Below are positions 12,694-18,017 of a DNA stretch of 32,000 nt, piece by piece (positions within the stretch are counted from its first letter, which is position 1; the number at the start of each line of letters is the position of its first letter). The stretch is taken from contig JAUWGH010000008.1 in assembly GCA_030606485.1 (NCBI GenBank), positions 90,001 through 122,000 on the forward strand, given 5' to 3'. The stretch is from Promethearchaeota archaeon (GTDB lineage Archaea > Asgardarchaeota > Lokiarchaeia > Sigyniarchaeales > SOKP01). The translations under genes were made by a program, and so were the position numbers. The notes beneath the pieces were generated by a model. That model made no database searches, was not told where the DNA came from, and saw only the letters and a program-made list of their open reading frames with translations.

Positions 12694-14115
12694 TTATTGT
12701 GATGAAATAAATTGATTATATTCATACATCATTTTTAAGGCCGTAATAGCTTCTTTTACTCGGTTCATTACTGGAATTTGAAATCTCAATGCTGGTTTTA
12801 ATATATAATCAAACACCCACCGAGAACCAAAAACACAAATAATGCAAGGCTTTTTAAATTTAGAGGAAAGATTTTTTATAATTCTTAATGATGGCATAAT
12901 GCTTACACCTAGCAATTCTAAGGGTAATCTTGGTACAGTAAAAAGGAACAATACACTATCAACATTATTGTCGTTGAAAATTGCCTTTAATGTAGGATTA
13001 AGAGTAATCATTTGAGATGGTCCTAGATCTACCGGATTTTTTAATGACACCCAATCGGGAGCCACTGCTCTCATCGATTGAATTGTATTTTCCCCAAGTT
13101 CAGCAAGAATAAGTCCTTGTTTTTCTAACTCATCGCATGCCAAAATTCCGATACTACCAGAGCCGGTTATAATGGCTACATTTTTTCCCCTAGGTAAAGG
13201 TTGTATAGCAAAAACTTGAGCAATATTAAACATCTCATAAAAATTATCTACTCGAAAAATACATGGATATTGCTTAAAGATAGCGTCAAATATCCGATCA
13301 TTACCAGCTAATGACCCAGTATGACTTTTAATTGCGTTAGAACCCAATTCACTTCTCCCATTTTTAAGAATTATAATTGGTTTTGTTATTTTTTTCAAGA
13401 CTTCGATAAAAGCATCACCTCTCTTTACTCCTTCTAGGTAAATGGTTATCACTTTAGTATCTGGATCATTTTCAAAATATTCTATCATATCAATTTCATC
13501 GACATCAATCTTGTTCCCTAGCGTTACAACCTTTGAGAAACCAATTTTCTGACCTACACTAGCCCAATCAATAAATACATTTCCTAAAACACCAGATTGA
13601 GCAATGATTGCAATATTACCTTTCACCGTTTTTGAAAAATCTACATCAGAACTAGTGAATTCATTATAAAAATTCGTAACACCTACACAATTAGGACCAA
13701 TTATACGAATATTAGAACTTTTAACGATTTCCTCTAATTCCTCTTGATATTTAATGTATTTCTTAATACCTGTTTCTGCAAAACCAGCTGTTTCTATTAT
13801 TATTCCTTTTACATGCTTATCTACGCAATCTCTTACAGCTTGAACTACACTCTCATTTCCTACTAAAATTATTGCTAAATCAATATTATCAGGAATATCC
13901 TTTATGTTTTTATATGCTTTATGTCCAAAAATTTTATCTTTATATAAATGAACTGGGTATGTCTTAAATTTTGAATTTAATAGATATTTTGTATTCCAAA
14001 ATCCAAATCTTGGAGAATCCGAAGCTCCAATTATTGCAATCGAGTTGGGAGCAAAAAATAAATTTAAGTTATTACATTCTGAATTATCGTTATTATGTTT
14101 AATTTCCTTCTCCAT
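12694..14115 (-). CDS. ADP-forming acyl-CoA synthetase alpha subunit (CoA-binding, AcdA-like)
   Basis: 473 aa. PNSIAIIGAS, AGFAE, IIGPNCVG, AQSG, LGNKID, YLEG, SHTGSLAG (phospho-His), NPVDL. No beta subunit in the window. Confidence 0.85.
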   Translation of the reverse strand: MEKEIKHNNDNSECNNLNLFFAPNSIAIIGASDSPRFGFWNTKYLLNSKFKTYPVHLYKDKIFGHKAYKNIKDIPDNIDLAIILVGNESVVQAVRDCVDKHVKGIIIETAGFAETGIKKYIKYQEELEEIVKSSNIRIIGPNCVGVTNFYNEFTSSDVDFSKTVKGNIAIIAQSGVLGNVFIDWASVGQKIGFSKVVTLGNKIDVDEIDMIEYFENDPDTKVITIYLEGVKRGDAFIEVLKKITKPIIILKNGRSELGSNAIKSHTGSLAGNDRIFDAIFKQYPCIFRVDNFYEMFNIAQVFAIQPLPRGKNVAIITGSGSIGILACDELEKQGLILAELGENTIQSMRAVAPDWVSLKNPVDLGPSQMITLNPTLKAIFNDNNVDSVLFLFTVPRLPLELLGVSIMPSLRIIKNLSSKFKKPCIICVFGSRWVFDYILKPALRFQIPVMNRVKEAITALKMMYEYNQFISSQ

Positions 14116-14332
14116 ACTTTTTTTAATATTTTCACGTTTAATAATTAATTGATATATCGATTAAATTCAGATATTTTATTTTCCATTAAATTTTTAAAAA
14201 CTTTTAAACAATATACCTTTTTAATCCATAACAAATAATAATTTATTATTTAAATCTGAAAGCTAATTAGAAATTATTAAATTAAAATAATTATAGAGAA
14301 TAATGGAGGTATTTTACAAAAAGGTGTAAAAA

Positions 14333-16261
14333 ATGTCTGAAATTCGCATTGGAGTATTTGTTTGCAGATGAGGAATAAATATTGCGGGGATATTAGATGT
14401 TCCAAAAATTGTCGATGAAATAGGTAAAATGGAGAATGTTTGGTCTTGGGAGTATTTAAATATATGTACAGATCCAGGAGCGACCTTTATTATTGAAAAG
14501 ATTAAAGATCTCGAGTTAGATCGGGTTGTAGTTTCAGCTTGAACACCAATAACACATCAACCGGTTTTTCATAGTGTCTTAGAGGATGCAGATTTACCAC
14601 CACGATTTCTTCAATTTGTTAATATTAGAGAACACTGCAGCTATGTCCATCAACAAGAACCAGAAATGGCTACACAAAAAGCGATTGAATTAATTAAGGC
14701 AGGCATTGCAAGAGCTGAGGTTTTAGAAGATATACCAACTAAAACAGTTCCAGTAGAGAAAGCAGCATTAGTAGTTGGTGGAGGAATAGCGGGATTGACA
14801 GCCAGTATTGATTTAGCAAATGAAGGGTTCAAGGTATACCTTGTTGAGAAAAAATCCACCACTGGTGGAAGAATGGCTCAATTGGATCGAACCTTTCCAA
14901 CCGATGATTGTTCCATATGAATTCTCGGACCTAAAATGTTGGCAGCCAATAGAAATCCAAATATTACGACAATGACAATGGCCGAAGTTTTAGAAGTGGA
15001 TGGCTATATTGGTAATTTTTCCGTTAAGGTGCGTAAGAATCCAAGATATGTTTACGAAGATATCTGTACTGGTTGTGGTGCATGTTCAGATGTATGTCCC
15101 ATATATATGCCAAATTATTTTGATGAAAATCTCTCGGCTAGAAAATGTATAGATGTAGCTTTTGCACAAGCAGTTCCTGCAGTTTGGGATCTTCAAACTG
15201 ATTGGTGTGTAGAATGTTACGCTTGTGTTGATTCTTGTGATGTTCATTGTATTGATTTAAGTCAAGAACCCGAAATTGTTGAATTTGAAGTAGGAACAAT
15301 TATTATTGCTACTGGTTGGGATATATATGAACCAGAAGAATATGGCTACGGAAAATATGATAATGTTATTACACAAATTCAACTTGAAAGAATTATCGCT
15401 CCGAATGGTCCAACTCTTGGACACTTAAAGCGGCCATCTGATGGAAAGAGACCAAAAAATATTTTGTTCATAAATTGTGTTGGGTCTAGAAATGAAGAGC
15501 ATCCATGGTGCAGTAATGTGTGTTGTTTATTGTCGATTAAAAATTCGAAATTAATCAAATCAGAATATCCAGATTCTAATATTGTAGTATCATATATCGA
15601 TATGAGATGTGCTGGAAAAGCATATGAAGAGTACTACAAACGCTCTAGAGACGCTGGAATCATGTTTATAAATGGGAAAGTGGGAACTTTACGAGAAAAT
15701 CCAGAAACAAAAAATCTCATTGCTACTATGGAGTCAATCGGAACTGGGGGTATTATTGAATATGAAGCCGATTTAGTGGTATTATCTTCGGCATCGCTAC
15801 CCTCAGCAGGTACAAATGAAATTGCAAATATTTTAAAGGTAGAAAAAAGTCCGAGTGGATTTTTAAAAGAATTCCACTCAAGACTTGATCCAATTGAGAC
15901 AAAAATAACTGGGATTTATATTTGTGGTTCGTGTCAAGGACAAAAAGATATCGGTGCAACTGTTAATCAAGCAAGAGGTGCAGCACAAGCTGCCTCAATC
16001 CCAATGACTGCTGGAGAATATACAATAGAATTAATTCGTGCACAAGCAAATGATGAACGTTGTGCCAAATGTTATAAATGTATTGAAACATGTCCTTATA
16101 GCGCTATATCAGTTGATGAAGCAGGGAAAATCGTAGTTGACCTTATTAATTGTAAAGGTTGTGGTATGTGTGCAGCAGTTTGTCCATCGATTGCTATAGA
16201 ATTACGTTATTATAGAGATTATCAATATAACGCAATTATTGATACATTATTTGAAGCGTAA
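14333..16261 (+). CDS. hdrA: Heterodisulfide reductase subunit A (flavin-based electron-bifurcating subunit), selenoprotein with 3 Sec, 642 aa
   Basis: One continuous frame from ATG 14333 (AGGTG RBS at 14322-14326) to TAA 16259-16261. In-frame TGA at 14369-14371 (codon 13, VFVCR-U-GINIAG), 14540-14542 (codon 70, VVSA-U-TP..HQ) and 14918-14920 (codon 196, FPTDDCSI-U-ILGPKM), each where HdrA has a conserved Cys. Also VVGGGIAG, two ferredoxin inserts, QLER and CSNVCCLLSIK. Merges track ORFs 14666-14920 and 14936-16261. Confidence 0.93.
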
Positions 16262-16279
16262 ACATAAAGAGGTAAAAAA

Positions 16280-16708
16280 ATGAGTTCTGATATAAAAATT
16301 GCGTCTTTTATGTGTTGGAAATGAGGGTATGGGGCGGGTGACATGGCGGGTACAATTCGAGCGCAATATCCGACTACAATTAGAGCAATATTAGTACCTT
16401 GCGCAGGAAGAGTTGGCTCTGAATTAATAATGAGAGCTATTGGTCAAGGTGCGGATGGTATTTTAATAGTTGGATGACACCCAGGTGAATGTGACTATGA
16501 AATCGGTAATAAACTGGCATACAGAGAAGTTGAATATATTAATCAAGTTCTAAATGTACTGGGTCTCTCAGATAAAAGAGTAAAGATGGAATATTGTAGT
16601 TCTGCAGAAGGGCAAAAATTTCAGCAAGTAGCAATTAATTTCGACAAGCTTATACGAAATCTTGGGAAAAATCCCCTTAATAAGAAAAGTTCCGACAAGA
16701 ATGAATAA
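16280..16708 (+). CDS. vhuD: Hydrogenase iron-sulfur subunit delta (MvhD/VhuD), selenoprotein with 2 Sec, 142 aa
   Basis: Absent from the ORF track. ATG 16280 (GAGGT RBS) to TAA 16706-16708: MSSDIKIASFMCWK-U-GYGAGDMAGTIRAQYPTTIRAILVPCAGRV...GADGILIVG-U-HPGECDYEIGN...YCSSAEGQKF...LGKNPL. TGA at 16322-16324 (codon 15) and 16475-16477 (codon 66), both at [2Fe-2S] Cys-ligand positions of MvhD. Confidence 0.93.
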
Positions 16709-16759
16709 TACGAGAAAATTTTAGTCGTGTTATGACTACCTGTTGCAGAGGTGTTGGAA
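16690..16759 (+). promoter_or_regulatory. Eukaryote-like SECIS element (selenocysteine insertion RNA structure)
   Basis: AUGA (16701-16704), then a 9-bp stem AUAAUACGA/UCGUGUUAU (16705-16713 with 16725-16733), an apical loop GAAAAUUUUAG and GA (16734-16735). Lower stem is CGACA/UGUUG (16693-16697 with 16741-16745) or UUCCGACA/UGUUGGAA (16690-16697 with 16752-16759). Lies at the 3' end of two TGA-containing genes. Confidence 0.82.
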
Positions 16760-16880
16760 ATAAAAAGTTTTTTAAAAAATATATAGAAATTTGTTCAAAA
16801 ATTAAATTGGAAAAAATAACGTTAAAAGATTCATAAAATTAAAAGTTAGGTTAATATTTATCTAAAGAAATATAAAATTC

Positions 16881-18017
16881 GTGATATTCATGGAGCCAAT
16901 GGAAGAATTACTGATAAAATATGATGATGTTAAGAGTATAATGGCAACGTTATTAAAAGAGAAAATAGTTTCTAAAATCATTAGTGGAGAAATTAAAAAA
17001 GGACATTTTAATGTATCCCCGAAATTGGTTTCAAAACTTGAAGAATTAGAAGATTTGCCACTTTCTCAACTCATTTCTTATGGTTATGCTCGAACCGATA
17101 GTGCATCTAAATTTTTACATAAAAATGCAAATGGCGCATTAGACGAAAAAGTTGGACTTATTGCTCGTCCTTGCGATACAAGAGCGATAATTGAACTTAT
17201 TAAATTACATCAAATCAATCCTGATAATTTATTTATTATTGCAATTGAAGATATGGGGATGATCCCGTCTTCAATGATTACAAGGATATTTAACAAAAGA
17301 AAGGAGTTTGATCAGAGTAAAATTATTCGGGATAAATTAACCGCTGAAAATCTTACCCTTATTTTAGATGGTGGGAGTTTAGAGGTTTTAGAGTTTAATG
17401 AAAATTTAAAAATAGCAGATAACTGTTTGAGATGCCTAAGAAAAGTTCCTGTTATGGGTGATTTATCGATAAGTGATATCGGAATCTCTGTAAAATCAGA
17501 TGATTTGATATTGCGTGTTTATTCTGAGAAGGGAAAGTCTGCTGTTGAGAAAGCTGGAATCAAAACCAGAAAAATTCCCGATGACCTAAAAAATCACAAT
17601 TCTGAAAGAGTAGAGACTATTTTAAAAAATGCTGAAGAAAAACGCACTAAAGATTTGGAAGAATGGAAAACTATGAATCAAGATGAAAAATTGGAAATGT
17701 TAAACAAATGCACTATGTGTGGTCTCTGCATTCGAGGTTGCCCCGTATGTTACTGCATTGATTGTATTTTAATGCAAAAACGAAAGGAAAAAACAATTAA
17801 TAATATTACATTTCAATTAACCCGCGTTGCACATGTCGCTGACAGATGTGTAGAATGTGGTAATTGTGCCAATAATTGTCCAATGAACTTACCATTATCT
17901 GAATACTTCCAATCATTAATTGAAACATTTAAAGAGAAATTTAATTATATTGCTGGAGAATCAGTTGATGATATTCCATTCCGTTCAGGAAAAGCAATTA
18001 AGGAAATGGAATTATAA
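16881..18017 (+). CDS. FdhB/FrhB-family (F420-dehydrogenase beta subunit-like) iron-sulfur protein with C-terminal 4Fe-4S dicluster
   Basis: 378 aa. ARPCD..AIIEL....QI..DN, NCLRC, CTMCGLCIRGCPVCYCIDC, FQLTRVAHVADRCVECGNCANNCP. Confidence 0.8.
   Translation: MIFMEPMEELLIKYDDVKSIMATLLKEKIVSKIISGEIKKGHFNVSPKLVSKLEELEDLPLSQLISYGYARTDSASKFLHKNANGALDEKVGLIARPCDTRAIIELIKLHQINPDNLFIIAIEDMGMIPSSMITRIFNKRKEFDQSKIIRDKLTAENLTLILDGGSLEVLEFNENLKIADNCLRCLRKVPVMGDLSISDIGISVKSDDLILRVYSEKGKSAVEKAGIKTRKIPDDLKNHNSERVETILKNAEEKRTKDLEEWKTMNQDEKLEMLNKCTMCGLCIRGCPVCYCIDCILMQKRKEKTINNITFQLTRVAHVADRCVECGNCANNCPMNLPLSEYFQSLIETFKEKFNYIAGESVDDIPFRSGKAIKEMEL

Follow-up and report, generated by a model that had tools for sequence, protein, structure and literature searches.

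A reading frame interrupted by three TGA triplets very probably encodes a functional Lokiarchaeia HdrA, in which UGA codons 13, 70 and 196 specify selenocysteine (Sec) and which stands together with a neighboring vhuD gene and one lokiSECIS element, as judged from sequence comparison. The frame lies in a 32,000-nucleotide stretch of an archaeal contig; this whole stretch is referred to here as the window. Translation with TGA read through gave an hdrA coding sequence of 642 codons plus a TAA stop (14333..16261, forward strand). TGA occurs in this frame solely at three codons, as had been claimed when the frame was first read and as our translation reproduced. The putative Sec codons are codon 13 (14369..14371, forward strand; motif C11-R-U13-G), codon 70 (14540..14542, forward strand; motif A-U70-T-P) and codon 196 (14918..14920, forward strand). 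The last of these is the canonical HdrA Sec site, within the pair C193-S-I-U196. Calling open reading frames with translation table 11 yielded an 84-aa ORF (14666-14920) and a 441-aa ORF (14936-16261), both lying in the 642-codon frame. Codon 112 begins at 14666, so the count of 111 codons upstream of the two ORFs given by the original prediction was correct. The reverse strand across 14333-16261 is full of stops and has no open frame. As anticipated for standard gene callers, the hdrA of the window is present in public collections as fragments of 441 aa and 84 aa. Public calls of 642 aa exist for close relatives and carry W at residues 13, 70 and 196; these W-containing calls are code-4 artefacts. 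For annotation, this means that public databases carry the gene either in fragments or with Trp in place of Sec.

We compared the read-through protein with curated families and solved structures. It matched the NCBIfam models HdrA2 (742 bits) and HdrA (603 bits) along its full length, both scores falling below the curated equivalog cut-offs (1100 for HdrA2 and 1400 for HdrA), so that the protein is an HdrA-family member of a non-methanogen and no proven CoB-CoM heterodisulfide reductase equivalog. Solved HdrA chains from the PDB matched residues 1-640 with E-values of 2e-210 to 4e-170; these full-length matches and the NCBIfam result agree in identifying the protein as HdrA, as predicted. Its domains comprise an N-terminal Fe-S domain, an FAD/thioredoxin-reductase-like domain, an inserted ferredoxin and a C-terminal ferredoxin. 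Pfam recognized NAD_binding_8, Pyr_redox_2 and FAD families at residues 145-223, together with both ferredoxin domains. An AF2 model of the N-terminal domain (pLDDT 92.5) superposed on HdrA chains with Z of 22-25 and rmsd of 1.2-1.3 Å, and its next matches were generic flavodoxin-like folds at Z of about 10-11, in a comparison that showed one chain per PDB entry, so that MvhD chains of those entries could not appear. The genome contains about eleven HdrA paralogues. Columns 11, 13, 45 and 70, 245/248/251/255, 292/295/298/302, 382/397, 577-587 and 607-617 are C or U in every paralogue, while columns 393 and 398 are Cys in the paralogues except the divergent C8:260530. The Cys sets of the N-terminal cluster, the inserted ferredoxin, the TrxR-domain cluster and the C-terminal ferredoxin are all kept.

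Directly downstream, 18 nt after the hdrA stop, starts vhuD/mvhD (16280..16708, forward strand, 142 codons), which encodes the [2Fe-2S] delta subunit. Family assignment rests on Pfam FlpD (1.5e-39) and NCBIfam VhuD. This gene has two in-frame UGAs of its own, at codon 15 (16322-16324, forward strand) and codon 66 (16475-16477, forward strand). U15 aligns with MvhD Cys16 and U66 with MvhD Cys67, and among relatives TGA is found at position 15 in 77/77 and at position 66 in 76/77. Overlapping the vhuD stop codon, we read from the sequence a lokiSECIS (16701..16735, forward strand). It has a 9-bp stem (16705-16713 paired with 16725-16733) and an 11-nt loop, GAAAAUUUUAG (16714-16724), and runs in the order ATGA, ATAATACGA, loop GAAAATTTTAG, TCGTGTTAT and GA. 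The published lokiSECIS consists of AUGA, a 9-bp stem, an 11-nt loop with an A-rich start and an AG end, and GA (PMC4989117); compared with that description, 16701-16735 has every published feature. The original prediction concerned hdrA and mentioned neither vhuD, with its two further in-frame TGAs, nor this SECIS.

A relaxed scan of 14000-16950 returned no second mismatch-free SECIS candidate, whether before, within or directly after hdrA. The element at 16701-16735 is therefore the sole candidate for all five UGAs of hdrA and vhuD. The same architecture was found 3' of vhuD in 63/80 relatives. Because MAFFT placed two SECIS sequence classes 13 columns out of register, anchored positions were scored by script instead. 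Among the relatives, stem pairs 2-9 covaried, each showing three to six pair types of which 97-100% were canonical. For the pair adjoining the GA core the figure was 62%, as expected next to a kink-turn. The element 3' of the C1 hdrA paralogue does not fit the simple 9/11 pattern. Rfam reported no SECIS family in the whole window at the gathering score or in 16640-16820 at E up to 10, with chance sRNA matches only; this miss is expected, since existing SECIS tools overlook lokiSECIS according to PMC4989117. Further downstream lies a gene for an FrhB/FdhB-like flavoprotein (16881..18017, forward strand) with Pfam FrhB_FdhB_C and Fer4 matches and a C-terminal 2x[4Fe-4S] region. An FrhB-like gene directly follows hdrA-vhuD in 63/80 related loci, and by this gene order the flavoprotein may be a partner of the HdrA-VhuD module. 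Neither hdrBC nor hydrogenase genes adjoin hdrA-vhuD; more than 20 CCG-domain (HdrB) genes occur elsewhere in the genome, none of them next to hdrA.

Structure prediction suggests that the lokiSECIS is one part of a conserved three-way junction, a layout not described in the main texts of PMC4989117 or PMC11227280. Single-sequence folding predicted the junction at 16690..16759 (forward strand; MFE -17.9 kcal/mol, z = -2.7). Helix 1 pairs 16690-16696 with 16753-16759, the SECIS hairpin forms one arm, and helix 3 is a small hairpin (16738-16741 paired with 16749-16752) that lies 3' of the GA and carries GCA in its loop. Helices 1 and 3 were both present in the MFE structures of 48/66 related elements, compared with 15% of flank-shuffled controls. 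The two sides of helix 1 paired at a mean of -10.8 kcal/mol in their native combinations versus -5.5 kcal/mol when partners were swapped. Helix 1 varies in sequence between clades, with its complementarity kept. The VhuU SECIS of the same genome was predicted to have the same three-way layout.

We then asked which residues occupy the UGA columns in other HdrA proteins. When the read-through translation was aligned to HdrA homologues, as had been proposed as a check, Cys or Sec stood at all three positions. Codons 13 and 70 face Cys in the solved chains 9sfi_A and 8rvu_a; codon 196 faces X (Sec) in M. maripaludis 9sfi_A and Cys205 in M. marburgensis 8rvu_a, where C193 and U196 align with Cys202 and Cys205. 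Among Asgard relatives, column 13 is TGA in 76/77 and Cys in 1/77, and column 196 is TGA in 80/80. At column 70, 22 relatives have TGA and 56 have Cys; at a further column, 45, the counts are 12 for TGA and 66 for Cys. Residues other than Cys or Sec were absent from columns 13, 45, 70 and 196 across the 80 Asgard loci. The particular combination of TGA at 13, 70 and 196 recurs in 14/80 related loci.

These column counts bear on the possibility that the UGAs are recoded unevenly, with inefficient decoding, termination, or insertion of Cys via the Sec pathway at low selenium leading to mixed products. One such site might be codon 13, which lies 2.3 kb away from the SECIS. Decoding of five UGAs from one distal element has no precedent outside the clade (PMC4989117), and Methanococcus grown without added selenium still makes some selenoprotein (PMC11097638). 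Moreover, sites 70 and 45 switch between TGA and TGC/TGT among relatives, which indicates that Cys is tolerated there. Against this, the near-invariance of TGA at 13 and 196 points to selection favoring Sec itself and to UGAs that are decoded efficiently, and the genome keeps separate Cys-type HdrA paralogues, with Cys at columns 13, 70 and 196. We consider uneven recoding very unlikely, and Sec at all three codons remains our preferred reading.

The gene could instead be a decaying pseudogene, its TGAs nonsense mutations and its product at most the 441-aa C-terminal ORF. Table-11 calling, which returns fragments only, and the public gene calls that contain these fragments are what such decay would produce. 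The comparison with related genes speaks against it. The nearest HdrA relatives are all from Asgard MAGs (Promethearchaeota/Promethearchaeia), the best being isolate ABR01 at 94% identity, and the 94%-identical orthologue has TGA at the same three hdrA codons. Four paralogues, namely the HdrA of the window and three others, are 47-55% identical and have TGA at precisely columns 13, 70 and 196. Over the 80 relatives, TGA is restricted to Cys columns; L030, an orthologue at 82% identity, reads TGC at codon 70. Relative to locus L029, 26 of codons 1-196 differ synonymously and 8 non-synonymously, the third position being the usual site of change, and in comparisons with the 94% and 82% orthologues codons 1-196 diverge in the same way as codons 197-642, mainly by synonymous third-position changes. 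On these codon comparisons, hdrA codons 1-196 are under purifying selection. In addition, the 642 codons contain no frameshift and no internal TAA or TAG in DNA of 30% GC. We therefore regard decay as very improbable.

The genome (3.75 Mb, 29% GC) was searched for the genes of the Sec pathway, a search that the original prediction had called for. A whole-genome search allowing introns found a tRNA-Sec (47.1 bits) whose anticodon is TCA and which contains a 24-nt intron; ARAGORN run on locus L001 alone gave no tRNA. Near the tRNA-Sec on the same contig are genes for SepSecS (487 bits) and an EFSec/SelB-like factor (264 bits). The genome also encodes SelD (184 bits, with one in-frame TGA of its own) and has a PSTK-like gene (E 7e-41, under the curated cut-off). 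Genome-wide, 201/1571 long ORFs (about 13%) end in TGA, which indicates that the code is not reassigned; neither a UCA-anticodon tRNA for Trp or Gly nor genome-wide in-frame TGA at Trp/Gly columns was seen. Contigs of three independent studies (cold seep, marine sediment and subsurface) showed no change at the TGAs, and one independent contig had a third-position C>T at 14914, four bases 5' of the third TGA. That TGA is a standard sense codon (Trp or Gly, codes 4 or 25), as some automated 642-aa calls of close relatives imply, or that the TGAs are sequencing errors, has a negligible probability given termination at TGA elsewhere in the genome, the confinement of in-frame TGAs to Cys columns, the dedicated tRNA-Sec and Sec pathway, and the identical letters in independent contigs.

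Together, the columns confined to Cys or Sec, the paralogues, the independent contigs and the signature of selection lead us to exclude the pseudogene, sequencing-error and reassigned-code readings. All three hdrA UGAs are best read as selenocysteine on this comparative evidence. The claim that all three are Sec and that none breaks the gene thus held up, supported by the Cys/Sec-only columns, the paralogues and the Sec machinery. A genome without that machinery, TGC or TGT at these sites in independent sequence, or homologues with residues other than Cys would have spoken against it; we looked for each and found none.

We propose that hdrA would be co-transcribed with the two-Sec vhuD and that the lokiSECIS at 16701-16735 most likely recruits archaeal EFSec/SelB with its Sec-tRNA(Sec) to decode all five UGAs, of which the most distant stands 2.3 kb upstream of the element. 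Service of two cistrons by one SECIS follows the proposal of Mariotti et al. 2016 (PMC4989117). The product would be a flavin- and Fe-S-containing electron-bifurcating subunit, with its three Sec residues in or next to the ligand shell of a single cluster, HA3, the mobile N-terminal 'shuttle' [4Fe-4S] cluster. The positions at HA3 would be supplied in cis by U70, U13 or both, and in trans by U196 of the other protomer; U196 would also form with C193 a redox pair, C193-x-x-U196, beside the FAD. Selenium would tune the hand-over of electrons among VhuD, FAD and HA3, a role that we infer from structures of methanogen homologues.

Several structural reports bear on these assignments. As summarized in PMC9012536, the N-terminal HdrA cluster is coordinated in the crystal structure by N-terminal Cys residues and by Cys197 of the other protomer. 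By analogy with this homologue, the crystal form implies that U196 is a trans ligand of the N-terminal cluster. Four N-terminal columns (11, 13, 45 and 70) are conserved as Cys or Sec; with Cys197 acting in trans, one of the four would be spare, so that at least one of U13 and U70 should be a ligand. The original prediction placed both N-terminal Sec residues on the cluster. What stood of this is ligation by at least one of them, not necessarily by both. It mentioned U196 neither as a trans ligand nor as a member of the CxxC pair. A profile alignment, weak in its statistics (E 0.015, probability 3%), placed HdrA C11/U13/C45/U70 onto VhuD C12/U15/C41/U66; BLASTP of the HdrA N-terminal domain against VhuD gave nothing meaningful. 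This correspondence suggests that U13 is the spare residue, like the non-ligand 'additional' Cys16 of MvhD, and that U70 is a ligand. The 2016 paper, which predates the HdrA structure, held that the Sec columns are not cluster ligands (PMC4989117); later structural literature suggests a different view of the ligand role at 196 and at 70/13.

Cryo-EM has described HA3 as a mobile shuttle cluster for the low-potential electron and placed the C-x-x-C pair between the HA3 and VhuD [2Fe-2S] clusters and the bifurcating FAD. In M. marburgensis, the Cys202/Cys205 pair binds an unidentified ligand in cryo-EM (PMC13580544), and for M. maripaludis a Sec197-Cys selenylsulfide relay has been proposed from the structure (PMC13518236). 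In cryo-EM papers of 2025-2026, the route by which electrons reach the bifurcating flavin through conserved additional cysteines in HdrA and MvhD is a standing question, and the Asgard Sec positions are those same cysteines. One tentative idea is that the Asgard Sec set (HdrA 13, 45, 70 and 196; VhuD 15 and 66) marks a ligand-swap or chalcogen-exchange gate in bifurcation. On this idea, which we consider possible but rather doubtful, the Sec set might correspond to the coordination sphere of HA3 and the VhuD [2Fe-2S] cluster, two 'spare' cysteines and the C-x-x-C pair, where the spare cysteines would be HdrA 13, corresponding to MvhD Cys16. If true, the gate would be the step that passes electrons among the [2Fe-2S] cluster, FAD and HA3 during bifurcation, and a three-Sec HdrA, with Se at up to three positions around HA3, would be a natural probe of it.

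We compared the module with known systems. The Cys-type HdrA proteins of M. thermolithotrophicus, M. wolfeii and M. marburgensis (5odc, 8rvu) keep every Fe-S Cys column together with the FAD domain and with the Cys202/Cys205 pair, and have Cys at 13, 70 and 196, where the protein of the window has Sec. Methanococcales HdrA(U) (M. maripaludis, PDB 9sfi; PMC13518236) shares its fold and the arrangement of its cofactor Cys residues with the protein of the window over 640 residues (E 2e-210). Sec stands at the same C-x-x-U site (Sec197 in M. maripaludis), and the two Sec of the accompanying VhuD occupy the columns seen in the window. A single Sec is present in the methanogen HdrA, whereas that of the window has two more in its N-terminal domain. 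Methanococcal genes use a GAA_A-type archaeal SECIS, while the window carries a eukaryote-like AUGA/GA element, and the methanogen enzyme partners with HdrBC, Vhu or Fdh, and Fwd, where the window has an FrhB-like neighbor.

With eukaryotic SECIS elements and SelP-like multi-Sec mRNAs, the lokiSECIS has in common the AUGA...GA kink-turn core and the A-rich apical loop. Like the eukaryotic elements, that of the window lies at the 3' side and would act at a distance on several UGAs. It differs in its shorter upper stem, in serving two cistrons of a polycistronic mRNA, and in lacking an Rfam SECIS match. No SBP2 is known in Loki (PMC4989117).

The closest system is that of the Lokiarchaeota, for which a multi-Sec HdrA class was already known, as the original prediction stated (PMC4989117, PMC11227280). 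Tandems of hdrA and vhuD were described there, in which the several Sec residues of HdrA can fall at five Cys columns and a single SECIS stands 3' of vhuD (PMC4989117); Huang et al. 2024 (PMC11227280) catalogued the arrangement in a survey of hundreds of Asgard genomes. In these pairs, as in the window, hdrA lies directly 5' of vhuD on the same strand with a tiny spacer, HdrA has several Sec at conserved Cys columns, the canonical site near position 200 always among them, VhuD contains two Sec, hdrA ends in TAA, and a lone lokiSECIS follows vhuD (PMC4989117, PMC11227280). We found no essential difference between these pairs and the hdrA-vhuD of the window, which adds one more case, from a Lokiarchaeon of a cold seep or marine sediment. 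The hdrA of the window is a real three-Sec HdrA of a class already published in 2016.

One HdrA paralogue of this genome (contig C1, 56637-58577; positions 638-2578 of the extracted locus L025) carries a fourth TGA at column 295, in the residue numbering of the window HdrA, as do three relatives (L097, L098 and L100). Within the C-x2-C-x2-C-x3-C motif of the inserted ferredoxin domain of HdrA, column 295 is the second Cys and therefore an unambiguous [4Fe-4S] ligand position, at which the TGA, on sequence grounds, is read as Sec in place of Cys. TGA codons at columns 245 or 298 were found rarely, in relatives. Two public gene calls (P0004 and P0014), which cluster with window 14936-16258 and derive from short contigs of close relatives, are 642-aa full-length HdrA proteins in which residues 13, 70 and 196 are Trp. 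Evidently, the gene caller had switched to a code in which TGA encodes Trp. Large protein collections contain HdrA with Sec sites mistranslated as Trp.

Directly 3' of hdrA-vhuD lies a gene for an FrhB/FdhB-like protein that carries a 2x[4Fe-4S] domain at its C-terminus (window 16881-18017). Its retention beside hdrA-vhuD in 63 of the 80 Asgard loci suggests that the products may form an HdrA-VhuD-FrhB-like complex. At a distance from all four Sec-type hdrA-vhuD pairs, a locus on contig C5 (253265-256097; L028) looks like the hydrogenase/HdrBC partner set. It comprises, in order, a [NiFe] hydrogenase large subunit (435 aa, lacking the C-terminus), a small VhuU-like Sec ORF, and HdrC-like and HdrB (CCG) genes. 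The VhuU-like ORF has its own lokiSECIS (254780-254814), with a 3' core of AA rather than GA. Contig C8 encodes a Cys-type HdrA-MvhD fusion (258275-260821, minus strand), an open frame of 848 aa in translation, whose first ~75 residues look like a winged-helix DNA-binding domain.

A perfect 9/11 lokiSECIS on the minus strand of contig C1 (354946-354980) lies 3' of a 51-codon ORF (L027, 1517-1672, minus strand). The product begins with a basic segment, continues with a single hydrophobic helix and finishes in a Pro/Gly tail with a terminal G-G-G-U-C. This layout resembles that of eukaryotic SelK-type small membrane selenoproteins.

The lokiSECIS hairpin itself appears to belong to a conserved three-way junction, of which it would form one arm. 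The junction is predicted by MFE folding at window 16690-16759 (plus strand), with counterparts at L024 (3212-3288), at L026 (649-725, minus strand) and 3' of vhuD in the relatives (L029-L108). The main texts of Mariotti 2016 (PMC4989117) and Huang 2024 (PMC11227280) contain no description of such a junction. Besides the SECIS arm, it comprises a lower helix 1, which shows covariation between clades, and a small helix 3, whose loop contains GCA. Both helices were present in the MFE structure of 48 of 66 elements, compared with 15% of shuffles. Helix 3 is inserted immediately behind the 3' GA, in the kink-turn strand that lacks the bulge, and the overall arrangement resembles a k-junction.
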